Shown piece after piece: positions 1,566-37,886 of a DNA stretch of 60,999 nt. A model generated the notes under the pieces. It was not told where the DNA came from. It saw only the letters and a program-made list of their open reading frames with translations, and ran no database searches. The stretch is from positions 1 through 60,999 of the IMG/VR virus record IMGVR_UViG_3300044568_003707. The stretch is one strand, 5' to 3'. Position 1 is the stretch's first letter. The number at the start of each line of letters is the position of its first letter. The stretch is from a virus (Duplodnaviria > Caudoviricetes). Made by a program: the position numbers and the translations under genes.

Positions 1566-1594
1566 TTGACTTGTTGCTATTTTTTGTTCATAGT
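1566..1594 (+). promoter_or_regulatory. Sigma70-type promoter
   Basis: TTGACT-17nt-CATAGT just upstream of the ATG at 1604. Confidence 0.65.
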
Positions 1595-1603
1595 ATGGTC
1601 ATT

Positions 1604-2629
1604 ATGAGTGAACGTAAATTAGCTTCTATACAGAAAATAACGGAAATCCTACCAATTGACGGTGCGGATAAGATTGTGTGTGTAAAAATTCTGGGGTGGC
1701 AATGCGTGGCACTAAAGACTGAATTTAAAGTCAATGACGCTTGTGTTTTTTTTGAAATAGATAGTGTTCTTCCTATCGCACAATGGAATGATCATCTAAG
1801 AAAAGAGCCAAATAAGCCATTGCGTATAAAAACAATACGACTTCGTGGACAATTGAGCCAAGGATTGGCTATGCCAATGTCTATTATTCCAACTGGAGAA
1901 TATGAAGTGGGTCAAGATGTCACTGAACTTGTTGGTGTTACTAAATACGAACCTGTTGTGCCTGCACATCTATCTGGTATGGCCAAAGGAAACTTTCCAG
2001 CATTTTTACATAAAACTGATGAAACTCGTTTACAATCGGAACCAAGAGTGCTTGATGAAGCCATATCCAAAGGTCTTGTGCTCGTTGGCACACTCAAAAT
2101 GGACGGTACAAGTTTTACTGCATATCGAAGAGACGATGAGTTTGGCGTGTGTTCTCGCAACCTTGATTTAAAGGAAACGGAAGATAATGCTCATTGGAGA
2201 ATGGCTCGCAAGTTGAAACTTGAAGAAATTCTTCGCAGCGAACCTAGCAATCTTTCTATTCAAGGTGAAATTGTAGGTCCGTCTATTCAAGCAAATCGTC
2301 TTGGTTTATCGGAATCTAAGTTGTATTTATTCAATCTATTTGATATAGACACAGGGAAATATCTTAGTCACACCGAACTTTCTGCGTTTGCAGAAAAGCA
2401 TGGATTGAAAGTGGTTCCAACTGTGTATCGTCTTGATTTTGGCGGTGTTGTTGGTCCAAGAGATGTCAATCATTTGCTCAATATTGCCAACAATCTGAAC
2501 TATGACAACGGTACACCAGCCGAAGGCATTGTTTGGCGTTCTATGTGTGAAACTCACAGCGATGTTCTCAAAGGTAGATTATCGTTCAAGACAATATCAA
2601 ATAGATATTTGGAAAAATATAAAGAATGA
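1604..2629 (+). CDS. RNA ligase, Rnl2/DRB0094 family
   Basis: N-terminal RKLASIQKI..I.GADKI module; KTDETR; motif I KMDGTS; QGEIVG; EGIVWR; FKTISNRYL. Confidence 0.9.
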   Translation: MSERKLASIQKITEILPIDGADKIVCVKILGWQCVALKTEFKVNDACVFFEIDSVLPIAQWNDHLRKEPNKPLRIKTIRLRGQLSQGLAMPMSIIPTGEYEVGQDVTELVGVTKYEPVVPAHLSGMAKGNFPAFLHKTDETRLQSEPRVLDEAISKGLVLVGTLKMDGTSFTAYRRDDEFGVCSRNLDLKETEDNAHWRMARKLKLEEILRSEPSNLSIQGEIVGPSIQANRLGLSESKLYLFNLFDIDTGKYLSHTELSAFAEKHGLKVVPTVYRLDFGGVVGPRDVNHLLNIANNLNYDNGTPAEGIVWRSMCETHSDVLKGRLSFKTISNRYLEKYKE

Positions 2630-4832: not shown

Positions 4833-6011
4833 ATGAACAAAATTGTTACATTGTTTTTGATGTTCTTTCTGTGGAACAATGTTTATGGTGCTGTGGGTAA
4901 ATTGACAGAGGTGACTGGCCCTACACAAGTTAGTAGGGCCAGTACCAAATTGGATGGTAAGGTTGATGTGGGTATAGAAATAGATGATACCATCGAAACT
5001 TTAAAATCGCGTGTTGGTATAACATTTGAAGATGGTACCAGAGTACAATGCACCGAGTTTAGCAAACTTGTTATAGATACGTTTGTGTATGATCCAAGTA
5101 GTGGAAAAGGAAAGCTTGCAATGAAGGCAACAATGGGAACGGTGAGATATGCTTCTGGATTGATTGCCAAAAATAATAAAGAAGAAGTAAAAGTAAAAAC
5201 TCCCACGGCATCTATATCAGTACGTGGCACAGATTTTTCAATGACAGTTGATGAATTGGGCAGAAGTTTGGTTATTCTTTTACCATCCCAGCCACAATTT
5301 GGACCTTCCGTTGTTGGTCAGATAACAGTGAGTAATGGACTTGGAACAGTTGTATTGACCAAAGCATATCAGGCTACATTTATAGCATCAAGTTCTGTTG
5401 TACCATCTTCTCCAGTGATTTTGAATTTTGACGACGAAAGTAAAGTGAACAATATGTTGTTGATTGATACACCAAAAAATGTCACACAAGCTGCAAAAGA
5501 AGCAAAGAAAGCATCTGTTGGTTCAGAAAAAGAAGATGATGGTGGAGACAAAAACAAAAAGATGGAAAAGAAAGAAACAAAGTCCGAGAGCAAATCCGCT
5601 GGTACATCAGTTGCTCAAGTTGACGGAGGTTCGACTGAGGCTCCAATCGAGGAGACCCACTCAACTGTCAATGTGGTCCAAGAAAATATTACTATAAAGC
5701 TTGATATAAACGCTATAAGTCCAAGCACCAATGTTGCTGTCATGGATGCAATTGCGGCAAAACAATCTATACAATCCGTACAACCGACATCAATAGCACC
5801 AATTATATCCACGCCAACTTCTACAGTAAATAATGGCTTTACAACGAACGGAACGCATGCTATATTGTATATAACCAATGGAAATAATGTGGTGTGGTAT
5901 ACTCTAAAGGCTGATGCCAATGCTATATTCAATATAACTCAAAATACTGAATCAAAGGAATATCCATTGAACTTCGGTTCTAAACTTAAAGTTAATATAA
6001 TTCAAAAATGA
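4833..6011 (+). CDS. FecR-domain protein
   Basis: Signal peptide; ITFEDGT, VKTPTASISVRGTDF, GQITVSN. Confidence 0.85.
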   Translation: MNKIVTLFLMFFLWNNVYGAVGKLTEVTGPTQVSRASTKLDGKVDVGIEIDDTIETLKSRVGITFEDGTRVQCTEFSKLVIDTFVYDPSSGKGKLAMKATMGTVRYASGLIAKNNKEEVKVKTPTASISVRGTDFSMTVDELGRSLVILLPSQPQFGPSVVGQITVSNGLGTVVLTKAYQATFIASSSVVPSSPVILNFDDESKVNNMLLIDTPKNVTQAAKEAKKASVGSEKEDDGGDKNKKMEKKETKSESKSAGTSVAQVDGGSTEAPIEETHSTVNVVQENITIKLDINAISPSTNVAVMDAIAAKQSIQSVQPTSIAPIISTPTSTVNNGFTTNGTHAILYITNGNNVVWYTLKADANAIFNITQNTESKEYPLNFGSKLKVNIIQK

Positions 6012-8068
6012 AATCTCATATTCTTAAACTATTTGGCGTCGGTTTGCTGATATTAACTGCACTTGTTGTGCTACGCATACAAGATTCATATCCAATAGAA
6101 GTAATGAGGCTCAAGGGATTGGACTATTATCAACGCACACAAGACAAAGTAAAAAGTGAAAATATCATCATTGTTGAAATTGATGAAAAAAGTTTAGAAG
6201 AAAAAGGACAATGGCCGTGGCCAAGAAATGAATTGGCAGATGGTATCAAGAAAGCATTTGAAAATGAAGCAGCTACTGTAGTATTGCCAATTATATTTGC
6301 GGAAAAAGATAGAATGGGTGGAGACGCAGCATTTGTGGAAATATTGGGAAAAGCACCCGTAATCACAGCACAATCTGCGGCAGTAAAGGGCAAAGGCGTA
6401 CCAGTATCAAGAGGTATGGCAACGATTGGCGGCAGTGCAGATGGATGGTTGTATGATTATCCCAACGCAATTGGACCGATAAAAGAAATAGGTGAATCGT
6501 CTGCTGGTGTGGGAATGTTATTGACGGCACCTGAACTTGATGGTGTGGTACGTCGCTTGCCGTTGGTTGTGCAAGTAAAAAAAGAAACATATCCAACTTT
6601 ACCTTTGGAAGTGTTGAGAGTGTTTGGAAATGAACCGAGCTATCAAGCAAAAATCAATGAAGCCGGAGTGCAAGCCATAAGAGTAAAAGGCTCTGCTCCA
6701 ATAAATACAGATGCTAGTGGTAGAGTATGGATAAACTTCAAATACAAGTTTGATAATATTTCATATACAGATAAAGATTGGAGCAAAGTCAAAGGTAAGA
6801 TTGTGGTTATAGCATTGACTGCTGAAGGATTAACAAACACGGTGGCAACTCCTGTAGGAACAGCATATGGACACGAAGTTAGTATGCAGACGCTACAAAT
6901 GTTGGTTGATGGAAACAGATTGGAACGCAAAGCGGAGTTTGATTTATATGAGTTGGCAGTTGGAACATTGCTTGGATTGATTCTTGTAACATCCGCTGCA
7001 TATCTTGGCTATGTTTATAATGGAATATTGATAAAAGTATCTGTGTCTATGTGTGTATTTATTGGATTTTATTTGTTCAACAAGCATGGTTATTTGATTG
7101 ATTATACTTGGCCGATTATGGCAGCATTTTTGCCGTGGGTTGGATCAATATTTATGAGATTTGTAATGGAGTTCAAATTGAAGATGCAAATCAAGAAGCA
7201 GTTTGGTACATATTTGTCGCCAGCACTGGTTGAAAAACTACAAAAAAATCCGGGCTTGCTCAAACTTGGTGGCGATGAAAGAGAATTGAGCATCATGTTC
7301 ACAGACGTTCGTGGATTTACATCTATTTCAGAACATTATGGTAAAAATGTACAAGGTCTGACAATGATAATGAACAGATATATGACTGCTATGACAGAAG
7401 CCATTCTAAAAAATGATGGTACTCTAGATAAATATATAGGGGATGCTCAGATGGCATTCTGGAATGCTCCATTGGATGATCCAAATCACGCCAAGAATGC
7501 CGTAAAAACGGCACTGCAAATGCTAAAGAGATTGGATACATTCAATGAAGAAATATCTAAGGAAGGAGTTCCGGCTTTTGGAATGGGATTGGGAATCAAC
7601 ACTGGGGGCGTCGTCGTTGGCAACATGGGTTCTACTCAGCGTTTCGACTATACTTGTCTTGGCGACCATGTAAATCTTGCTTCTAGATTAGAAGGTCAAA
7701 GCAAACCATATGGTGTACGTATTGTTATTGGTACAAGAACATTTGAGCACATCAGAAATGATTATCAATGTTTTGAACTTGATTGTATCGCCGTCAAAGG
7801 TAAAAAAGATGGTACGAGAATTTATACCGTTCTTGAAAAAAACTTGAGTGAAAGCCAGTATAACATAGTTGTATCTGGTCATTTTGCTTTTCTAAATGAT
7901 TACAGAATGCAAAGATGGGATAGTGCAATATCTCATGCCAATGAACTCATGACGCAGAATAAAGAAATGAAGAAGTATTATGAAATGATGATTGAAAGAA
8001 TGTTGGAACTTCGTACCAGCAATATTGACAAACATTGGGACGGTATTTTTAGAGCAACCTCCAAGTAA
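6008..8068 (+). CDS. CHASE2-domain class III adenylate/guanylate cyclase
   Basis: GQWPWPR and DGVVRRLPL (CHASE2); 3 TM segments; FTDVRGFT, DKYIGDA, GDHVNLASRLEG, VKGK. Confidence 0.93.
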   Translation: MKSHILKLFGVGLLILTALVVLRIQDSYPIEVMRLKGLDYYQRTQDKVKSENIIIVEIDEKSLEEKGQWPWPRNELADGIKKAFENEAATVVLPIIFAEKDRMGGDAAFVEILGKAPVITAQSAAVKGKGVPVSRGMATIGGSADGWLYDYPNAIGPIKEIGESSAGVGMLLTAPELDGVVRRLPLVVQVKKETYPTLPLEVLRVFGNEPSYQAKINEAGVQAIRVKGSAPINTDASGRVWINFKYKFDNISYTDKDWSKVKGKIVVIALTAEGLTNTVATPVGTAYGHEVSMQTLQMLVDGNRLERKAEFDLYELAVGTLLGLILVTSAAYLGYVYNGILIKVSVSMCVFIGFYLFNKHGYLIDYTWPIMAAFLPWVGSIFMRFVMEFKLKMQIKKQFGTYLSPALVEKLQKNPGLLKLGGDERELSIMFTDVRGFTSISEHYGKNVQGLTMIMNRYMTAMTEAILKNDGTLDKYIGDAQMAFWNAPLDDPNHAKNAVKTALQMLKRLDTFNEEISKEGVPAFGMGLGINTGGVVVGNMGSTQRFDYTCLGDHVNLASRLEGQSKPYGVRIVIGTRTFEHIRNDYQCFELDCIAVKGKKDGTRIYTVLEKNLSESQYNIVVSGHFAFLNDYRMQRWDSAISHANELMTQNKEMKKYYEMMIERMLELRTSNIDKHWDGIFRATSK

Positions 8069-10138: not shown

Positions 10139-10257
10139 ATTTGCAAACGCCACGTCATTGGCGAAATTGAGGTTGACTCAAATGACAATTTTTTTGGCCA
10201 AAAAAGGTGAAGAAGTAGTAATTAAGCTTCTTGTGACCAAGCTGAAATGTAATACGT

Positions 10258-10335
10258 GATTCATTAGCACAGTCCGGTAAAGTGCGCCCTACGTTGAGTA
10301 GGGAGACGTGAGTTCAAATCCCACATGATTCGCCG
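10258..10335 (+). tRNA. Atypical or pseudo tRNA (TTG in loop, G33)
   Basis: D arm GCAC/GTGC; anticodon stem CCCTA/TAGGG with loop CGTTGAG; mismatched T stem; no CCA. Confidence 0.55.
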
Positions 10336-10406
10336 CGACCTACATTTCTAAAAACTTTATTGTAAATATGTAATGTTTTCGGACTTCAAGTCTATATTTA
10401 TTACAT

Positions 10407-10847
10407 ATGAAACAAAACCATAAGATCAAAGTATCGGACGCAGATGTAATTAAGGCATACAATTCCAAACTAACATTACACAAAGCCGCAAGTTTTCTTG
10501 GTGTAACTGTCATAACCTTATGGAGACGAGCCAAAAAACTCAATCTGGCTTGGAAAGACAAAAATTATAGAGGAACCAACAGTGGAACAAAAATTCCTTT
10601 ACAAGAAATTCTAGAAGGAAAACACCCCGACTATCAAACATTTAAGTTAAAAAACAGACTTATAGCAGATAAAGTAAAAATGAATAAGTGTGAAGTGTGC
10701 AGTATATCGGAATGGAATAATCGAGCATTAATAATGCAGCTTGACCACATAGATGGAGACCCGCATAATCATAGACTTGAAAATTTAAGAATGATTTGTC
10801 CAAACTGTCACTGTCAAACTCCAACTTGGTGCGGTAAAAACAAATAA
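10407..10847 (+). CDS. HNH homing endonuclease
   Basis: CEVC...LDHIDGDPHNHRLENLRMICPNCH; N-terminal HTH-like segment. Confidence 0.9.
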   Translation: MKQNHKIKVSDADVIKAYNSKLTLHKAASFLGVTVITLWRRAKKLNLAWKDKNYRGTNSGTKIPLQEILEGKHPDYQTFKLKNRLIADKVKMNKCEVCSISEWNNRALIMQLDHIDGDPHNHRLENLRMICPNCHCQTPTWCGKNK

Positions 10848-10854
10848 TTTTTAT

Positions 10855-10941
10855 GGGTATGTCGCATAGCGGCAATTGCAACGCACTGTAAATGCGTCGG
10901 CCTAACGGTCTCCGATGGTTCGAGTCCATCCATGCCCACCA
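10855..10941 (+). tRNA. tRNA-Tyr(GTA)
   Basis: Cloverleaf, long variable arm, CCA. Confidence 0.93.
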
Positions 10942-11414: not shown

Positions 11415-11492
11415 GGCCATGTGACGCAACTGGATAGTCGTGTTACGCTTAGAACGTAAATGTTGGGGGTTCGAGTCCCTCCATGGCTACCA
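11415..11492 (+). tRNA. tRNA-Leu(TAG), short variable loop
   Basis: TTACG-CTTAGAA-CGTAA; 5-nt variable loop; A73; CCA. Confidence 0.88.
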
Positions 11493-11587: not shown

Positions 11588-11665
11588 GGGCGTGTGACGT
11601 AACTGGATAACCGTGTTTCATTCAAAATGAAAATTTTGTGGGTTCGAGTCCCACTATGCCCACCA
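11588..11665 (+). tRNA. tRNA-Leu(CAA), short variable loop
   Basis: TTTCA-TTCAAAA-TGAAA; 5-nt variable loop; CCA. Confidence 0.88.
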
Positions 11666-14300: not shown

Positions 14301-14570
14301 TTGTTGAGGAGGTTGGCTTAGAGGCAGCAATCCTATAATGAGTAGAGTCCGTACTCCAAGCAAGTAAAAGTGCAGCGATGAATTCTTGAATTCTGCATTT
14401 TCCATTACCAACTATAATGGTTTTGCATGGAGGCAATTCAGACGATTGAACCGATAAGAACTAAGGAATTGACCTTAGCTCGGTGCCGAAAATGTAAGCG
14501 CAAGTATAGTTGTTATATATTTGGCCGCGAAACGGTATCAGCTCTTTTGGCGTAATAGCACACTCTTCAA
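14301..14570 (+). ncRNA. 23S rRNA L11-binding domain (H43-H44) mimic with 206-nt insertion
   Basis: GAGGAGGTTGGCTTAGAGGCAGCAATCCTATAATGAGT-[insert]-GCGTAATAGCACACTC aligns to 23S ~1053-1106. Confidence 0.75.
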
Positions 14571-14575
14571 AATAA

Positions 14576-14645
14576 CCCATGCCTGCACACGCAGGAAAGT
14601 TGGTATTTGGCACGGGAAACCGCCAACCATCTATCCTATCATGGG
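14576..14645 (+). ncRNA. Small structured RNA, unknown
   Basis: CCCATG/CATGGG closing stem; CCTGC/GCAGG and CGG-GAAA-CCG hairpins. Confidence 0.4.
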
Positions 14646-14656
14646 AACAATTTTAT

Positions 14657-14735
14657 GGCGATATCGTCTATGTTTGAAAAGGACAGGATATTCTCAATAT
14701 TCAGAGGTCGGTTCGACTCCCGACTATCGCCACCA
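14657..14735 (+). tRNA. tRNA-Glu(CTC)
   Basis: GGATA-TTCTCAA-TATTC; CCA. Confidence 0.82.
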
Positions 14736-14793
14736 TTTTATAATAAATAGTTCAAATTAGTTCAAATTCAAGATTTGAATGATATTTATGTAT

Positions 14794-15441
14794 ATGCACT
14801 ACTTGATATACAAGGTCACTAACAAAGTAAACAATAAAATTTATGTTGGTAAGCATAAAACAAATGACAAGAACGATAGCTATCTAGGGTCCGGCGCAAT
14901 TATTAAGAGGGCCGTTACGAAGTACGGTAAGGATGCTTTCCAAAAAGAAATACTTTACGAATGTGAAAACGAGGATGCGATGAACCGCAGAGAAGCCGAG
15001 ATAGTTGACGAAGAGTTCATAGCTCGTCAAGACACATATAATATAAAGCTCGGCGGTAATGGTGGATGGGACTTTATAAACAAGAATGCCCTTTTCAACG
15101 GAGTAAAACACCGCGCAGCGGCACGAGAAAATATAAAAAAAGCCAGTAAGGGATACAAAATTTGGTTTAAAAGTTTATCTACCGACGAGAGGGAAGAATA
15201 CATGGTAAAAAGGATGTTGGGAATTCGGCTATTTCAAGAGACGCATGGGGGCACTTTCAAAGGAAAGTCACACTCAGATTTAACGAAAGAAAAAATGCGA
15301 AAAGCGAGATTGGGTAAGGTGAGTGGAAAAGATAATCCATCATATGGAACAATGTGGATAACAAATGGTGTTGACAATAAGAAGATACACAGAGATACTA
15401 CGATTGCTGTTGGTTGGAAAAAAGGTAGAATAATAAAATAA
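14794..15441 (+). CDS. GIY-YIG/NUMOD3 homing endonuclease (Seg-like)
   Basis: LIYKVTNKVNNKIYVGKH; YLGSG; YNIKLGG; FKGKSHSDLTKEKM; GTMWITNG; GWKKGR. Confidence 0.9.
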   Translation: MHYLIYKVTNKVNNKIYVGKHKTNDKNDSYLGSGAIIKRAVTKYGKDAFQKEILYECENEDAMNRREAEIVDEEFIARQDTYNIKLGGNGGWDFINKNALFNGVKHRAAARENIKKASKGYKIWFKSLSTDEREEYMVKRMLGIRLFQETHGGTFKGKSHSDLTKEKMRKARLGKVSGKDNPSYGTMWITNGVDNKKIHRDTTIAVGWKKGRIIK

Positions 15442-15447
15442 TTTTAT

Positions 15448-15522
15448 TGGGATGTCGTATAAAGGCTATTACCTGCGGCTTTGACCCGCATGATCGTCGT
15501 TCAATTCGACGCATCCCAGCCA
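15448..15522 (+). tRNA. tRNA-Gln(TTG)
   Basis: TGCGG-CTTTGAC-CCGCA; CCA. Confidence 0.9.
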
Positions 15523-15616
15523 TTATATAGTTGACGGGTTGTAAAAACATATTCGAATTGTGTTTGATAAAACTTCGATACTCTCCATTTTTGTATATTA
15601 GTATACTTATAAAAGT

Positions 15617-23264: not shown

Positions 23265-23921
23265 ATGGCAAAAAAGATCAAAGTTAAACCGACTGATATA
23301 ATAAATAGTCCTCTGTTTGCTGGAGTGCCGCCGAAATTTGTAAAAAAAGCGGCTACTTTTTGTGAAGTAAAAGAGTATAGTGCTGGTTCATTTATAATAA
23401 ATGAAGGTGAAAAAGGAGACTTTATGTTTATTATACTTGAAGGCGAAGTAAATGTGCTAAAAGGACCAAAGAAGATGAAATTAGCCACACTTGGCAAAGG
23501 TGTATTTTTGGGAGAAGGTGCATTGGTTAGTAGATCACCAAGAAATGCAAGTATTGTAGCAAATAGCAGTGTTAAACTTGCTGTATTTGATCAAAATGGA
23601 TTTGATAAATTATCTGTTATGCATCCATGTATTCCTGTAACAATGATGAATATACACAATGAGCGATGCAAAGACACAGTGCGTAAACTCAATATAGTAA
23701 AATCAAAAGAATTTATATTGATGGCAGCAGTTGGATTGGTGTTGCTTGTAAAAAATTCACATAGTATACTTCCAATGAATCTACATGATATTGCAGATCA
23801 AATTGCAAGCTATATTCCAGATCAAGTTATGGCATTGGGTGGTCCAGCAGCAGCAGCAATTGGATTGAAATTAAAACAAATGGAAATGGGTGACATTGTT
23901 TCTAAATTAGATAAGATTTGA
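23265..23921 (+). CDS. Cyclic-nucleotide-binding domain protein with hydrophobic C-terminus
   Basis: IINEGEKGDFMFIILEGEV; FLGEGAL..SPRNASIVA. Confidence 0.88.
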   Translation: MAKKIKVKPTDIINSPLFAGVPPKFVKKAATFCEVKEYSAGSFIINEGEKGDFMFIILEGEVNVLKGPKKMKLATLGKGVFLGEGALVSRSPRNASIVANSSVKLAVFDQNGFDKLSVMHPCIPVTMMNIHNERCKDTVRKLNIVKSKEFILMAAVGLVLLVKNSHSILPMNLHDIADQIASYIPDQVMALGGPAAAAIGLKLKQMEMGDIVSKLDKI

Positions 23922-23981
23922 TAGTTTGTAGTTGACCAGAACAATATAATGTGTATAGTTATGTTTGTTCTTTTGAAATAT

Positions 23982-24065
23982 GGTCGGGTGATGGAATGGC
24001 AGACATGAAAGTCTTAGAAGCTTTTGCCGCAAGGCGTATGGGTTCAAGTCCCTTCTCGACCACCA
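23982..24065 (+). tRNA. tRNA-Leu(TAG), long variable arm
   Basis: AAAGT-CTTAGAA-GCTTT; CCA; preceded by a promoter-like site and boxA-like GTTCTTTTGAAA. Confidence 0.92.
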
Positions 24066-24075
24066 ATTTAAATAC

Positions 24076-24303
24076 TTTTTTCTGGTAGTAAATTCTTTGA
24101 GGTTCGTCGCCTCATTTACTGGCTGATATACAATGACAAAATCGTGGTTATTATTGATTGAAATGAAACGACTTCCGACACGCGGGTCTGATATAATAGT
24201 TAGATTAGAGTCCTTGAGGTAATAACTTGATTGTATATCAAAGGAGAGCATAACTGCGGTGCCATAACTTGGGATGACCAACCCAACGCGCAGTCAGAAA
24301 AAA
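24076..24303 (+). ncRNA. Large structured RNA, unknown (~230 nt)
   Basis: Closing stem TTTTTCTG/CAGAAAAA; helices TGATATACAAT/ATTGTATATCA, AGTAAA/TTTACT, CTGCG/CGCAG. Confidence 0.5.
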
Positions 24304-24306
24304 AAT

Positions 24307-24382
24307 AAGTGCTGACATTGGGGATGACTCACCTGCTGATGAACCAATGGCGCGGAGACGCAGGTCACTACCGCCAGCACTT
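24307..24382 (+). ncRNA. Small pseudoknot-capable RNA
   Basis: AAGTGCTG/CAGCACTT; CATTGG/CCAATG; loop ACCTGC complementary to downstream GCAGGT. Confidence 0.45.
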
Positions 24383-24390
24383 CACTTTAT

Positions 24391-24509
24391 GGCAGAGTGG
24401 CGCAATTGGCTGACGCGGTTGACTCTTTCCAGTTATTGTGAATAACGATGACTGGCAAAAATCAACTGTCTTAACGACACTGTGGGTTCGAACCCCACCT
24501 CTGCTACCA
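24391..24509 (+). tRNA. tRNA-Leu (probably CAA) with 32-nt hairpin insertion in the anticodon loop
   Basis: Otherwise canonical Leu tRNA (long variable arm, A73, CCA); stem GTTGA/TCAAC encloses 39 nt instead of 7. Confidence 0.8.
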
Positions 24510-24512
24510 AAA

Positions 24513-25199
24513 ATGAATTACACCAATGAACAAATTTTTCTATATGGTTCTACAATTGGAACAAGTACTCTGAGAAAGAGAATTATACAGCATAAACTCA
24601 AAGAATATCAATGTGAGATATGTAAGATAGATGATTGGAACAACAATTCAATCAGTTTACAACTTGACCACAAAGATGGTGATAGAAAAAACAACATATT
24701 AGATAATCTTAGATGGCTCTGTCCAAATTGCCATTCCCAAACTCCAACATTTTGTTCAAAAAATATTAAAGTTAAACGTTTCTCGGATGAACAAATATTG
24801 GAAGAGTGTAAGAAACAAAAAAATATTAGGGGTGTTGTATTGGCGATTGGGTGTAATGTTCGTTTGTATGGTAGAATAAAAAGAATTGCGGATGAAAATG
24901 GAATAGCATTTGAACAACCATATGGTACAGGTAGAATTTCCAGAGAGAGAAAAGTTCCAATTGGATTTGATGCAAAAAACAAATCTAAAGAATGGAAAGC
25001 AAAGATTGGATATTCTAATAGAAGAACAACTTGGCCAACAAAAGAAGTATTGACAAATCTCGTTGATTCTGTTCCAATTGAAACCATCGGAAATCAATAT
25101 GGAGTATCTGGAAATGCTGTTAAAAAGTGGTGTAATTTCTACGAAATAGAAACCAAACCGTCTGGATACTGGCAGAAGAAAAAATTTGGAAAAATTTAA
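24513..25199 (+). CDS. HNH homing endonuclease with C-terminal HTH
   Basis: CEIC...LQLDHKDGDRKNNILDNLRWLCPNCHSQT; IGNQYGVSGNAVKKW. Confidence 0.9.
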   Translation: MNYTNEQIFLYGSTIGTSTLRKRIIQHKLKEYQCEICKIDDWNNNSISLQLDHKDGDRKNNILDNLRWLCPNCHSQTPTFCSKNIKVKRFSDEQILEECKKQKNIRGVVLAIGCNVRLYGRIKRIADENGIAFEQPYGTGRISRERKVPIGFDAKNKSKEWKAKIGYSNRRTTWPTKEVLTNLVDSVPIETIGNQYGVSGNAVKKWCNFYEIETKPSGYWQKKKFGKI

Positions 25200-25212
25200 T
25201 TATAATAATTCA

Positions 25213-25389
25213 ATGAAAACTAAACTACCAAAACAAATCATTCGTATTGATGACGGTGAAGTATTTTCATTGAATGAAAATGGAACATATTCGCTTGAAA
25301 TGATGAAACAAAAATTCCCCAATCATTTGTACAATGAATACACATATGAAGTTTTGATGGAAAATTTCAAAGGATGCTTTAGACACTAA
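25213..25389 (+). CDS. Hypothetical protein
   Basis: MKTKLPKQIIRIDDG... Confidence 0.55.
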   Translation: MKTKLPKQIIRIDDGEVFSLNENGTYSLEMMKQKFPNHLYNEYTYEVLMENFKGCFRH

Positions 25390-25396
25390 TAATTTT

Positions 25397-25570
25397 ATGG
25401 ATATTCAAAACACAACAAACTATGATGCTGGAAAAATTGCAAAGCGTGAAGCAATGCGTAAAGAATTAAAACGTATGAAGATGCAACATATGATTGAACT
25501 AAATCAAACTATCGGTGAAAAAGCTGATGTTGTTGCAAAAAGATGGATTGCTGAGTTGAAACAAAAATAA
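25397..25570 (+). CDS. Hypothetical protein (57 aa, below track cutoff)
   Basis: MDIQNTTNYDAGKIAKREAMRKELK...; fills the gap before tRNA-Leu. Confidence 0.55.
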   Translation: MDIQNTTNYDAGKIAKREAMRKELKRMKMQHMIELNQTIGEKADVVAKRWIAELKQK

Positions 25571-25580
25571 TTTTAGATAT

Positions 25581-25666
25581 GGGCATATGGCGTAATGGTA
25601 GCCGCAGCAGACTTAAAATCTGTTTCTCGTAAGAGAGTATCGGTTCGAGTCCGATTATGCCCACCA
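25581..25666 (+). tRNA. tRNA-Leu(TAA)
   Basis: GCAGA-CTTAAAA-TCTGT; long variable arm; CCA. Confidence 0.93.
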
Positions 25667-25675
25667 ATTTATAAT

Positions 25676-25873
25676 ATGAAAACTTTAAAAGTTAAGAAAA
25701 AAGAATTTAAAAAAGCACTCAATGAATTGTGCCATAAACATAACGTCATTATTGATGACTCATTTACTATTGTATATACACGAAAAAAATATTGGGACGT
25801 TTCTCGCGTTGAAGTAAATACTCATCCATATAAAAGTGTATCGGATGTTGGAATGAAACTTTTACATAAATAA
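25676..25873 (+). CDS. Hypothetical protein
   Basis: MKTLKVKKKEF...; start moved downstream of the tRNA. Confidence 0.55.
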   Translation: MKTLKVKKKEFKKALNELCHKHNVIIDDSFTIVYTRKKYWDVSRVEVNTHPYKSVSDVGMKLLHK

Positions 25874-26046: not shown

Positions 26047-26491
26047 AGAGATTTATATTGAAAGCGGCAATCATTGGATAAATGCTCCATATCCATTGAA
26101 GCCAAATGATACTGAAGTAAAAATGTATCAACAACATCTATTGACCGGCACTACATTGTTACTAGGTTCTACAGTTCCTTTATTACCTTTGTGTGATGAA
26201 GCAATTGACTTGACTCCAAGAATACAAGATCCAAAAATAATCAAGGGAGATTGGAATAACATAGAAAAATTTTATGATAATATTATTGGCGACGGAGTTC
26301 TAAATTTAGAAGGAGAAAAGATGATTGAAAATCTTCGTCCCAAGTGTCATAGATTTATAAGCAGAGTATTTTCCAGAAAATTCTCATATATGAAATACGC
26401 TACATTTTTTTATAAAGATTTTCATAACGCAACAAAAATAGCAGAAATAAATGAATCATGTCCGATTTTCATCTGGAAGTTTACAAACTAG
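26039..26491 (+). CDS. Hypothetical protein, methyltransferase-like
   Basis: LLLGST; IDL; IKGDW; YDNIIGDG. Confidence 0.55.
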   Translation: MTKEIYIESGNHWINAPYPLKPNDTEVKMYQQHLLTGTTLLLGSTVPLLPLCDEAIDLTPRIQDPKIIKGDWNNIEKFYDNIIGDGVLNLEGEKMIENLRPKCHRFISRVFSRKFSYMKYATFFYKDFHNATKIAEINESCPIFIWKFTN

Positions 26492-27477
26492 TCAAGGCGT
26501 TGGAAGAAAACCAATATACACAACGCGATGTATCATTATTGATACCAAATCTTGATATATTGACAAGAGCGGAGTTGCAGAAAATACCTATAGACAAATC
26601 CAAACCATTTTCATCCACCAGTGGAGCAACTGGTCAACCAGTATTTGTTCAAAAGTATATGGCTCAAAATATTTGGTATTGGGCAACCAATATGCGTGAA
26701 CTAATTTGGAGAAAATGGGATACATCATTGAATTTGGCGGTAATCAACGCACCAGTTTCAGAAGAAAAAATAATACCTTGGCCGACAAATCCGTATTTAT
26801 TTACAAAAGGAGTTGGTAAGTGTTATATGCATCCAACACGAGGAGATTTGCAAGGTTGGCTATATAGAATTCAGCCAGATTATTTACACACATATCCATC
26901 TATCATCGCCACACTTGATACATCTAAACTAAAAGATGTAAAATCAACAAGTGAAAGAGGCGGAACCAATTATAGTTCAGAAGAAGTTGGTACAATTGGA
27001 TTAGAATGCCCAGACAATCCAGATGTATATCATATCATGGAGAACATTGTTATAGAAATCGTAGATGACAATGACATCCTCGTTACAGACCTCACACATC
27101 CATATATCAAGCGATACAAAATTGGAGATAAAGGAGAGTTTGATACTTGCAGCTGTGGAAGAAAATTACAAACCATCAATCGTAATGTTCTTGGTAGAAT
27201 TCGTAATATGATAAAGTATCAGGATGGCACAACTGCGTGGCCATTGTTTGGTAGCAATACCATAAGAAATGCATGTGATACAATAAAAAGATTTCAATGT
27301 GTGCAAGAGTCATACTCAGACATCACGCTGAAGATTCAAGGAACTATACCAGAAGATAAAATTGAAGATGTAAAGAAATTGGTATTGAAAAGACTCAATC
27401 ATCCATTCAATTTAAAGATAGAGTTTGTAGAATCTTTTCCAGAAGGAAAATTTGAAGAGTTTGTTTGTAAGATATAA
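26458..27477 (+). CDS. Phenylacetate-CoA ligase/CapK-like adenylating enzyme
   Basis: STSGATGQP; YSSEEVG; RYKIGDKG; CSCGR; VLGR. Confidence 0.85.
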   Translation: MSDFHLEVYKLVKALEENQYTQRDVSLLIPNLDILTRAELQKIPIDKSKPFSSTSGATGQPVFVQKYMAQNIWYWATNMRELIWRKWDTSLNLAVINAPVSEEKIIPWPTNPYLFTKGVGKCYMHPTRGDLQGWLYRIQPDYLHTYPSIIATLDTSKLKDVKSTSERGGTNYSSEEVGTIGLECPDNPDVYHIMENIVIEIVDDNDILVTDLTHPYIKRYKIGDKGEFDTCSCGRKLQTINRNVLGRIRNMIKYQDGTTAWPLFGSNTIRNACDTIKRFQCVQESYSDITLKIQGTIPEDKIEDVKKLVLKRLNHPFNLKIEFVESFPEGKFEEFVCKI

Positions 27478-36770: not shown

Positions 36771-37886
36771 GTGAAAATTGACTTACAATCCATCGACAAA
36801 GAGTCGTTTATGGTTCATCAACACTTTGTTGGTGGACATGAATGTTTTTTGGTTCAGCCAATTCATATTGGTGCTACTTGGAATAAAGAGAACCTTATTT
36901 ATCGTTCTTCATTGTGGGATAAAGATGGACATCCTGTTTCACTGTCGTTCAAGAAATTTTTCAATTATGATGAAAAGCCTGATATTTTTCCAGCACCTTC
37001 TGATCTAAAAAATGCGAAGTTGATGGAAAAGTTGGACGGTTCTACTTTAATCTTTTCTCGCTATAAGGGTCATACTGTTATTCGTACACGCGGAACTGTT
37101 GATGCTCGTAAGCAAGCAAATGGGTATGAGATTGACTATTTGCTTCAAAAGTATCCAAAGTTTGCAGATATGTTGAATCAAGCCGACACATACGATCAAT
37201 CGTTTATATGTGAGTGGTTGAGTCCGACAAATAGAATTGTACTAAATTATGGCGATGAACCAGAAATGAAGTTGATTGCTGCAATCGGACACGCAGATTA
37301 TACACTTACTCCGCAGAGTGTATTGGACTTGTATGCAAAGAGTTGGGATTTACCACGTCCCCGCACATTCTCTTACAACTCTGTTGAAGAAATGAAGTCG
37401 GCGGTTGAAGTGTTGAAAGACCAAGAAGGTTTGTGTGTATATTATGGAAACGAACAACAAATTCGTAAAGTAAAAGCCGCAAGCTATCTTTTTTTACATC
37501 GTGCAAAAAGTGAAATTTCTAGCATAGAAAAAATAATTGATGTGTATATTGATTGGTTTATACCACGTAACACATTATCACACGAACCAACTGGTTATGT
37601 AGAATTCTTTGAGTATCTTACCGAAAAGTTTGACTTTGAGATTGCTACAATGGCAACTGGACACGCTTCGCGCATCTGTGATGCTATGAAAGAAGTTCAC
37701 AAGATCATGACTGCACTGTTTGAGTTTGCGTCTGAGCGTATGAACATTGCTCGTAATATTGCCGCCAAAGAAATCTTACAAGCATATGGCAGCACGGGCA
37801 GAAGTGCAATTATATTCAAGATGCTAGATCGCAAGACCATCAGCACTGATGATTATAAAAAACTGCTATATCAAGTATTGAAGTAA
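36771..37886 (+). CDS. RNA ligase, T4 Rnl1-like
   Basis: SFKKFFNYDE; motif I EKLDGS; RTRG; EWLSP.NRIV; EGLCV; KVK. Confidence 0.85.
   Translation: MKIDLQSIDKESFMVHQHFVGGHECFLVQPIHIGATWNKENLIYRSSLWDKDGHPVSLSFKKFFNYDEKPDIFPAPSDLKNAKLMEKLDGSTLIFSRYKGHTVIRTRGTVDARKQANGYEIDYLLQKYPKFADMLNQADTYDQSFICEWLSPTNRIVLNYGDEPEMKLIAAIGHADYTLTPQSVLDLYAKSWDLPRPRTFSYNSVEEMKSAVEVLKDQEGLCVYYGNEQQIRKVKAASYLFLHRAKSEISSIEKIIDVYIDWFIPRNTLSHEPTGYVEFFEYLTEKFDFEIATMATGHASRICDAMKEVHKIMTALFEFASERMNIARNIAAKEILQAYGSTGRSAIIFKMLDRKTISTDDYKKLLYQVLK

Follow-up and report, generated by a model that had tools for sequence, protein, structure and literature searches.

The stretch of DNA analyzed here, which we call the window, is the 61-kb record IMGVR_UViG_3300044568_003707 of a virus of the Caudoviricetes. 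It covers an estimated 19% of the phage genome. Within its array of transfer RNA (tRNA) genes, a class II tRNA-Leu gene (24391-24509, plus strand) is interrupted in the anticodon loop by a hairpin of 32 nucleotides (nt), and a free-standing HNH endonuclease gene (24513-25199, plus strand; 228 amino acids) begins directly behind it. These two genes lie between tRNA-Leu(UAG) (23982-24065) and tRNA-Leu(UAA) (25581-25666), both on the plus strand and both identified by ARAGORN and Rfam. We compared the locus with related viral loci, with a complete relative of 297 kb (G001; 100% complete), and with the wider family of the HNH protein. It is close to certain that the locus holds an HNH cassette with its own interrupted tRNA allele.

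An earlier, sequence-only reading had described a class II tRNA-Leu with an insert in its anticodon loop, and Rfam, folding, and alignment all find the gene as described. Positions 24391-24506 match the Rfam tRNA model RF00005 over model positions 1-71 with 37.8 bits (gathering score 29; E 7e-06), leaving 36 bases unaligned in the anticodon loop. The class II leucine features are present, namely a long variable arm, a 3-bp D stem, A73, and CCA, and the gene is orthologous to Leu(CAA) genes. The 5' exon (24391-24425, plus strand) consists of the acceptor strand, the 3-bp D arm, the 5' strand of the anticodon stem, and C32, U33, and C34. The 3' exon (24458-24509, plus strand) consists of A35-A38, the 3' strand of the anticodon stem, the long variable arm, the T arm, the acceptor strand, A73, and CCA (24507-24509); the limits of both exons rest on Rfam, the fold, and the alignment. 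Between them lies the insert (24426-24457, plus strand), a 32-column gap in the alignment with 8 uninterrupted Leu(CAA) genes, for which the sole placement is between C34 and A35. Its deletion restores the loop CUCAAAA, as the earlier reading had proposed. The loop is 39 nt long in the gene and has the usual seven bases only when 24426-24457 is removed. ARAGORN in its default mode reports 36 tRNA genes in the window and misses this one; its intron option finds a 32-nt intron with the junction one base to the left of the aligned one and calls the product Phe(AAA).

The minimum-energy fold of the whole gene has a complete cloverleaf and, next to a 6x6 internal loop, an extra hairpin of 11 bp (-43.7 kcal/mol, z -4.37; equalled by 0 of 200 shuffles). 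Anticodon-stem pairs have probabilities of 0.96-0.995 in this fold, and both junctions fall in the single-stranded loop. The hairpin itself (24429-24455) has a 5-nt loop and the 11 pairs that the earlier reading described, of which 2 are G-U. Folded alone it reaches -14.3 kcal/mol, a value that 1 shuffle in 5000 equals, as do 10 of 5000 random 32-mers drawn from the window. No further copy of the insert occurs in the window at up to 3 mismatches. We rejected the idea of a repeated mobile hairpin, since the insert is single-copy in the window and G001 is without any mini-insert tRNA. We also rejected an inverted copy of the anticodon arm, as fold-back repair might leave, because the best local score of 14 was equalled by 308 of 2000 shuffles.

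A replaceable cassette and its second carrier

How does this locus look in related phages? Using the neighboring protein encoded at 26458-27477 as bait, we found 10 related viral loci at 87-96% identity, 9 of which cover the site. None of the 9 has the insert, and none has the HNH gene. Four of them (L004, L005, L006, and L012; three distinct sequences) carry an uninterrupted 86-nt tRNA-Leu(CAA) right after the same upstream spacer, three that are mutually identical (L008, L009, and L011) carry Leu(CAA) about 270 nt further on, and two (L007 and L013) are without Leu(CAA) at the locus. The complete relative G001 has no homologue of the window HNH gene and no mini-insert tRNA. Against L004, blastn homology stops at 24393 and resumes at 25213; against L006 and G001, it stops at 24410 and resumes at 25392. 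The smallest block that differs from the HNH-less relatives is thus 24394-25212 on the plus strand (compared with L004 and L005), or 24411-25391 compared with L006 and G001. The breakpoints lie at the 5' end of the tRNA, and the window exons represent a distinct tRNA allele, whose differences in the acceptor, anticodon, and T stems are compensated. Therefore, from the breakpoints and from the joint presence or absence of the two genes, the tRNA allele and the HNH gene make up one replaceable cassette of about 0.8-1 kb. The comparison shows that the cassette has taken the place of the ordinary uninterrupted tRNA-Leu(CAA) that related jumbo lake phages have at this locus.

The insert and the HNH gene recur together on L014, an independent metagenome contig, with an HNH protein of 98% amino acid identity and a tRNA that scores the same as the window's against RF00005 (37.8 bits). 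Because an independent contig holds the same gene and insert, the insert is not an assembly artifact. The window and L014 differ at 5 of 533 nt in the upstream region, at 1 of 87 nt in the exons (a purine for a purine in the T loop), at 4 of 32 nt in the insert, and at 9 of 687 nt in the HNH gene (4 of them synonymous). Three of the four changes in the insert are in the 5-nt loop, and the fourth gives a C-A mismatch in the stem, so that the hairpin weakens from -14.3 to -8.6 kcal/mol. The insert is real and inherited, and it is less constrained than everything around it. On the 3' side of the HNH gene, L014 is missing about 165 nt (a 67-amino-acid open reading frame (ORF)) and has a quite different tRNA-Leu(UAA) allele (window 25200-25700 versus L014 1343-1700), whereas upstream the two are about 99% identical; we therefore conclude that recombination has taken place around the cassette. 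The sequence-only reading had held that unspliced RNA alone, together with a hairpin not conserved in relatives, would point to a simple pseudogene, and the comparison of homologous loci cuts both ways: the relatives at the locus are without the hairpin, but one other carrier keeps it with a weakened stem.

We also looked for the allele further afield. The DNA of the locus had no match in a phage collection in near or distant search modes. An 18-mer spanning the D arm and anticodon arm gave only 2 chance matches among viral contigs, both in coding DNA, and exact-pattern scans of viral contigs for the insert borders with a variable gap, and for the 3' half, gave 0 matches each. The viral contigs scanned by exact pattern thus yielded neither a further carrier nor this exact allele in uninterrupted form. 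A scan for close relatives by the HNH protein alone produced 11 pattern matches, of which 0 were confirmed.

The HNH family and its insertion sites

The ATG of the HNH gene (24513) lies 3 bases past the CCA, in agreement with the earlier placement of an HNH ORF directly 3' of the tRNA. The protein matches PHROG HNH families with an E of 4.6e-31 and Pfam HNH_3 with 20.5 bits, under the cut-off of 24.8. Residues D52, H53, N61, N72, and H74 are invariant among 13 aligned HNH relatives, as are C34, C37, C70, and C73, and these residues make up a predicted HNH catalytic motif with paired CxxC zinc ligands. The patchy presence of the gene, absent from 9 of 9 related loci and from G001 and present in L014, marks it as a predicted homing endonuclease. 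Of 405 candidates, 312 are homologues at E <= 0.001. Proteins 96-100% identical to it occur on dozens of contigs (P0001-P0007), and the cassette is therefore not rare; over P0005-P0009, identity falls from 96% to 73%. HNH genes of this kind are mosaics: P0009 has about 75 C-terminal residues identical to the window protein, joined to another HNH core and an added N-terminal domain, and P0008 has the C-terminal two-thirds in common with the window protein.

We surveyed 159 loci with HNH relatives using ARAGORN in intron mode and found a tRNA within 400 nt of the HNH gene at 146 of them. The HNH gene lies inside a tRNA intron of at least 150 nt at 5 loci, beside a tRNA with such an intron at 25, beside a tRNA with an insert of 15-149 nt at 7, and beside uninterrupted tRNAs only at 109; the other 13 loci have no tRNA within 400 nt. 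Leu(UAA) genes split at U34|A35 account for 22 of the tRNAs with long introns, and their introns end in G. The two of these introns that were checked (L023 and L025) match the Rfam group I intron model RF00028 with 70.4 and 50.7 bits. Group I introns at U34|A35 of bacterial tRNA-Leu(UAA) are also familiar from cyanobacteria and plastids. The alignments show that the 32-nt hairpin of the window is a clean insertion between nucleotides 34 and 35, the site at which HNH relatives partner group I introns in tRNA-Leu(UAA). Like those introns, the insert occupies this position of a leucine tRNA and adjoins the same HNH family, as the phage examples illustrate; unlike them, it has no catalytic core, has the wrong terminal nucleotides, and is about one-sixth the size.

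Short inserts were found beside other members of the family. Of the 7 ARAGORN calls of 15-149-nt inserts, Rfam at E <= 0.01 confirms those in L014 and L077 only, and the others rest on ARAGORN and a reading of the fold. Class II tRNA-Leu genes in L022 (2699-2835), L026 (2501-2635), and L035 (2703-2837) have anticodon-loop inserts of 47-50 nt that are mutually homologous despite differing tRNA bodies (L022 versus L026, 0 of 2000 shuffles). In these three loci, a short-armed tRNA(CAA) follows 3 nt downstream, and then, 90-290 nt further, an HNH gene whose product has 30-32% identity to that of the window; a ROOL RNA lies at 4566-5144 of L026. Homology of the window insert to the inserts of L022 and L026 is not supported, as the scores were equalled by 164 and 659 of 2000 shuffles, respectively. 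L118 (3400-3555) has a 71-nt insert at U34|A35 of Leu(UAA), 25 nt past the HNH gene, L077 (3583-3705) has a 49-nt insert in tRNA-His (Rfam 51.7 bits), apparently at 37/38, and L065 (869-973) has a 32-nt hairpin in tRNA-Lys(UUU).

Fate of the insert and competing explanations

Can the insert leave the RNA? A group I intron follows a 5' exon whose last base is U and itself has G as its last base. The introns of phage Leu(UAA) genes beside HNH relatives obey this rule, and the window insert breaks both parts of it. RF00028 has no match at E <= 10 in 23800-25800, although the same method detects it in L023 and L025, and no Rfam family other than tRNA matches the insert at E <= 10. The insert is thus not a group I intron, because it is 32 nt long, lacks a match to RF00028, follows an exon ending in C, and itself ends in A; the sequence-only reading had already judged it too small. 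A bulge-helix-bulge motif consists of two 3-nt bulges 4 bp apart, and the fold lacks one, since both junctions share one symmetric 6x6 internal loop. The tRNA-splicing endonuclease domain PF01974 has 0 matches in the window, an estimated 19% of this phage, and in G001 (controls match in 4 archaea), and neither RNase III (PF14622) nor RtcB (PF01139) was found in the window or G001. Excision of the RNase III type was rejected as well: worked out by hand, the deduced junctions have a 5' overhang in either register of the helix and not a 2-nt 3' overhang, and the window and G001 contain no RNase III gene.

The two phage RNA ligases invoked by the earlier reading are genuine. One is a T4 Rnl1-type gene (36771-37886, plus strand; RNA_lig_T4_1, PF09511, 46.4 bits; PHROG 562) whose copy in G001 is 87% identical, and the other (1571-2629, plus strand) encodes RNA_ligase PF09414 with an OB-fold domain, as assigned by Pfam and PHROG, and is 78% identical to its G001 copy. 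Because both also occur in G001, which has no insert, the ligases are not specific to the insert. Should the insert be excised, the Rnl1-type ligase would be a candidate for sealing the ends, but not otherwise. We also examined the contigs of 4 metatranscriptome runs from 4 studies, which share 0.15-0.18 of words with the locus, a share due to upstream spacer RNA of relatives. No contig of these runs lies over 24391-25199, a result with no bearing on expression or splicing.

We tentatively favor, with slightly less than even confidence, a homing cassette in which the hairpin is a passenger or a target breaker at the DNA level and the tRNA allele is broken and probably non-decoding. At the DNA level, the insertion would break, or would once have broken, a nuclease target in the anticodon region, and it would travel with the HNH gene as in collaborative homing. 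The best argument for linking the insert to a nuclease target is that it sits at the same nucleotide position of a leucine tRNA as the HNH-partnered introns. At the RNA level, because the hairpin appears not to be self-removing and no removal machinery is visible, the transcript would most likely be a non-decoding passenger. UUG would be read instead by a host tRNA and by a second tRNA with anticodon CAA at 11588-11665 (plus strand; short variable arm, A73; ARAGORN, and Rfam 53.5 bits), a possible back-up decoder of this codon. The copy of this tRNA in G001 is 95% identical, and with a second tRNA(CAA) both here and in G001, a dead allele would therefore be tolerated. The relaxed constraint suggested for the insert (4 of 32 changes versus 1 of 87 in the exons, window versus L014) also lends support.

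Several observations weigh against this preference. Neither carrier shows a flaw in its tRNA body, and the insert folds alone and leaves the cloverleaf undisturbed, as an intron would. The two carriers are only 1.3% diverged, so the intact exons show neither decay nor selection. Moreover, the nearest non-identical HNH relatives (L015 and L017 at 59%, L016 at 54%, and L124 at 52%) lie just downstream of an uninterrupted tRNA-Leu(CAA), and the anticodon arm of L015 is the same as in the HNH-less L006. Since these HNH genes stand beside uninterrupted Leu(CAA) genes, the insert is not required for immunity or carriage, and the target may lie elsewhere. The earlier suggestion that the insert shields its allele from the adjacent HNH enzyme is accordingly left divided: the insert and the HNH gene do occur together, and the family is partnered with introns at the same site, but its nearest relatives stand beside uninterrupted genes.

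Could the insert instead be a protein-spliced mini-intron? A host or phage endoribonuclease would then cut the 6x6 loop on each strand, following C34 on one and preceding A35 on the other, and an Rnl1-type ligase would reseal the ends into a working tRNA-Leu(CAA); the hairpin and the HNH gene would together be a mobile intron with a separate homing enzyme. The insertion is clean, its removal gives the exact loop of the 8 uninterrupted relatives, and the cloverleaf and the autonomous hairpin fold together with single-stranded junctions. This fold has no bulge-helix-bulge, however, and the overhang at the junctions is 5' and not of the RNase III type. On the enzymatic side, the phage has genes for two ligases, one of them of the T4 Rnl1 type, and T4 Rnl1 together with Pnkp is described as resealing breaks in the anticodon loop (PMC3400036), but both ligases are also present in the insert-less G001, and PF01974, PF14622, and PF01139 were not found. 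The concentration of changes in the hairpin loop, with the exons kept, is the constraint predicted of an intron, although the L014 stem has gained a mismatch and the back-up tRNA(CAA) makes loss of the gene tolerable. Contigs cover the gene in 0 of 4 RNA runs; permuted contigs of the neighboring spacer RNA, seen in 2 of the 4, hint at end-to-end ligation of phage transcripts in relatives. Non-group-I tRNA introns are in print for Lak phages (PMC6784885). Weighing these points, we regard splicing of this kind as unlikely, yet a serious contender. Somewhat less likely again is the fuller version, in which a true bacterial-virus mini-intron, cut by protein and resealed by the Rnl1-type ligase, spreads with the HNH gene, and the neighboring, possibly circular RNA is a second product of the same ligation.

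A dead remnant of a group I intron at 34/35, with its core deleted and no present role, would explain why the site is that of the group I introns beside HNH relatives. ARAGORN finds a series of sizes at or near this site in tRNA-Leu beside those relatives, of about 200-250, 71 (L118), 47-50 (L022, L026, and L035), and 32 nt, but the short inserts other than those of L014 and L077 are unconfirmed by Rfam at E <= 0.01. Those introns begin with GAGAG or AGAG and finish in GUAAG, ends to which the insert bears no resemblance; it ends in A rather than G, its 5' exon ends in C34 where group I sites use U, and a perfect 11-bp hairpin between two intron ends is not expected. We consider a remnant improbable. 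Slightly more improbable is a tRNA mimic with a masked anticodon, serving as a decoy for an anticodon nuclease or leucyl-tRNA synthetase, or as a signal for processing that would release the HNH mRNA with a leader of 3 nt. No tRNA identity feature is damaged, A73 and CCA included, the split anticodon can be neither read nor cut in the usual loop, and with the HNH ATG 3 nt past the CCA, tRNA 3' processing would set the 5' end of the mRNA; but relatives manage without the element, and even the two carriers differ in the sequence of the hairpin. We give very little credence to a shifted splice. The earlier arithmetic holds in that a junction moved one base to the right would give CUA, an amber suppressor, and ARAGORN in intron mode picks the junction one base to the left, which gives AAA. 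However, the anticodon is CAA in 8 of 8 uninterrupted relatives, and the standard code gives 49 window ORFs of at least 150 amino acids with no sign of recoding. The probability left over after all these readings goes to possibilities that we have not thought of.

Known systems resemble the locus in part. In collaborative homing, the target of a free-standing endonuclease is the site where an ORF-less intron is inserted (PMC3984707). In the window, the nuclease gene likewise lies next to an interrupted conserved gene rather than within it, the two occur or are missing jointly, and the interruption sits where relatives of the nuclease have introns. Unlike that system, the interruption here is a 32-nt hairpin without a ribozyme, the host gene is not obviously rescued, and close HNH relatives are without the insert. 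T4 SegB is a free-standing homing endonuclease of the GIY-YIG type in a phage tRNA cluster that recognizes a tRNA gene motif (PMC2330249). The window HNH gene is similarly a selfish nuclease gene in a phage tRNA array, spread with neighboring tRNA genes, and its predicted target is likewise in a tRNA gene; it differs in being HNH and not GIY-YIG, and the tRNAs neighboring SegB are uninterrupted. Lak megaphages have "enigmatic" introns in their tRNA genes (Devoto et al. 2019, PMC6784885), which, like the window insert, are non-group-I inserts in a phage tRNA anticodon loop defined by aligning alleles with and without them. The available part of that report gives an example of 93 nt at 37/38, describes the introns as highly conserved, and reports no nuclease linkage, whereas the window insert is 32 nt long, lies at 34/35, varies fast, and is HNH-linked. 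A literature search for short introns without a ribozyme in phage tRNAs, with linkage to a homing endonuclease, found only the Lak report. Archaeal and eukaryal tRNA introns (PMC4090602) are similarly short, non-catalytic, and in the anticodon loop, and removal of the window insert would likewise take a nuclease and a ligase; but the window insert has no bulge-helix-bulge, is at a non-canonical position, and belongs to a virus of bacteria, and a homologue of the splicing endonuclease was not found in the window or G001.

What is new here is the set of empty orthologous sites, the definition of the cassette, the tRNA and intron habit of the HNH family, the second carrier, and the second tRNA-Leu(CAA) gene. 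Homing endonucleases are known to colonize phage tRNA arrays, and group I introns are known to render such invasions harmless. The window locus is an intermediate outside both pictures, with the same nuclease family and the same anticodon site but an interruption too small to self-splice. If the insert is not spliced, the locus shows selfish cassettes eroding and replacing phage tRNA genes while duplicate tRNAs cushion the effect. If splicing does occur, protein-based tRNA splicing has been overlooked in bacterial viruses, and phage RNA ligases, so far explained as repair against anticodon nucleases, would gain a role in routine processing. A true mini-intron would be a ribozyme-free mobile intron using a tRNA-splicing route undescribed for bacteria or their phages. 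The empty orthologous sites and the second carrier supply exact junctions.

Neighboring features of the window

Directly upstream of the interrupted tRNA, outside the cassette, lies a conserved structured RNA of about 310 nt (24074-24388, plus strand), recognized by conservation, covariation, and RNA contigs. Fifteen loci share the 325-nt spacer from tRNA-Leu(UAG) to the interrupted tRNA at 85-99.7% identity, and L015 and L017 share its 3' half at 82%. In L004, L005, and L006 the spacer is 98.8-99.7% identical, compared with about 92-95% for the flanking DNA. Its consensus fold has 70 pairs, 18 of which are changed on both sides; shuffles give 5.1 +/- 1.7, with 18 attained in 0 of 500, and no slid control exceeds 4. 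No Rfam family matches the spacer RNA at E < 6. All 4 metatranscriptome runs contain a contig from a close relative over 24074 to 24383 or 24393, with 3-7 letters different from the window and word depths of 32, 304, 52, and 8. In two of the runs, which come from different studies, the contig wraps around, joining about 24383 to 24074, and its two ends share five bases. The spacer RNA could thus be a circular RNA of about 310 nt, or its gene could be in tandem copy in relatives, two cases that these contigs do not separate. A literature search on circular phage-encoded RNAs found nothing relevant.

Nuclease-plus-tRNA cassettes are the rule in this array, because there are two more besides 24391-25199, as with T4 SegB (PMC2330249). 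One, at 10193-10884, is absent from G001 and contains tRNA-Gln(UUG) (10258-10334) and a 146-amino-acid HNH protein (10407-10847) whose core is 54% identical to the HNH protein of 24513-25199. The other, at 14302-15577, is also absent from G001 and has a GIY-YIG-type homing-endonuclease gene (14779-15441; PHROG 314) between tRNA-Glu(CUC) and tRNA-Gln(UUG).

The second tRNA(CAA) has a companion at 11415-11492 with anticodon UAG. Both are 78-nt tRNAs with leucine anticodons, and their short variable arms are unlike those of class II tRNA-Leu. By protein similarity, Methylophilales phage Melnitz and Pelagibacter phage HTVC008M are distant kin of the phage, with 41-42% identity over a cyclase-like protein. 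The window encodes a 686-amino-acid protein (6008-8068) resembling the Melnitz and HTVC008M proteins annotated as adenylate/guanylate cyclase, and a protein with a cyclic-nucleotide-binding domain is encoded within the tRNA array at 23265-23921.

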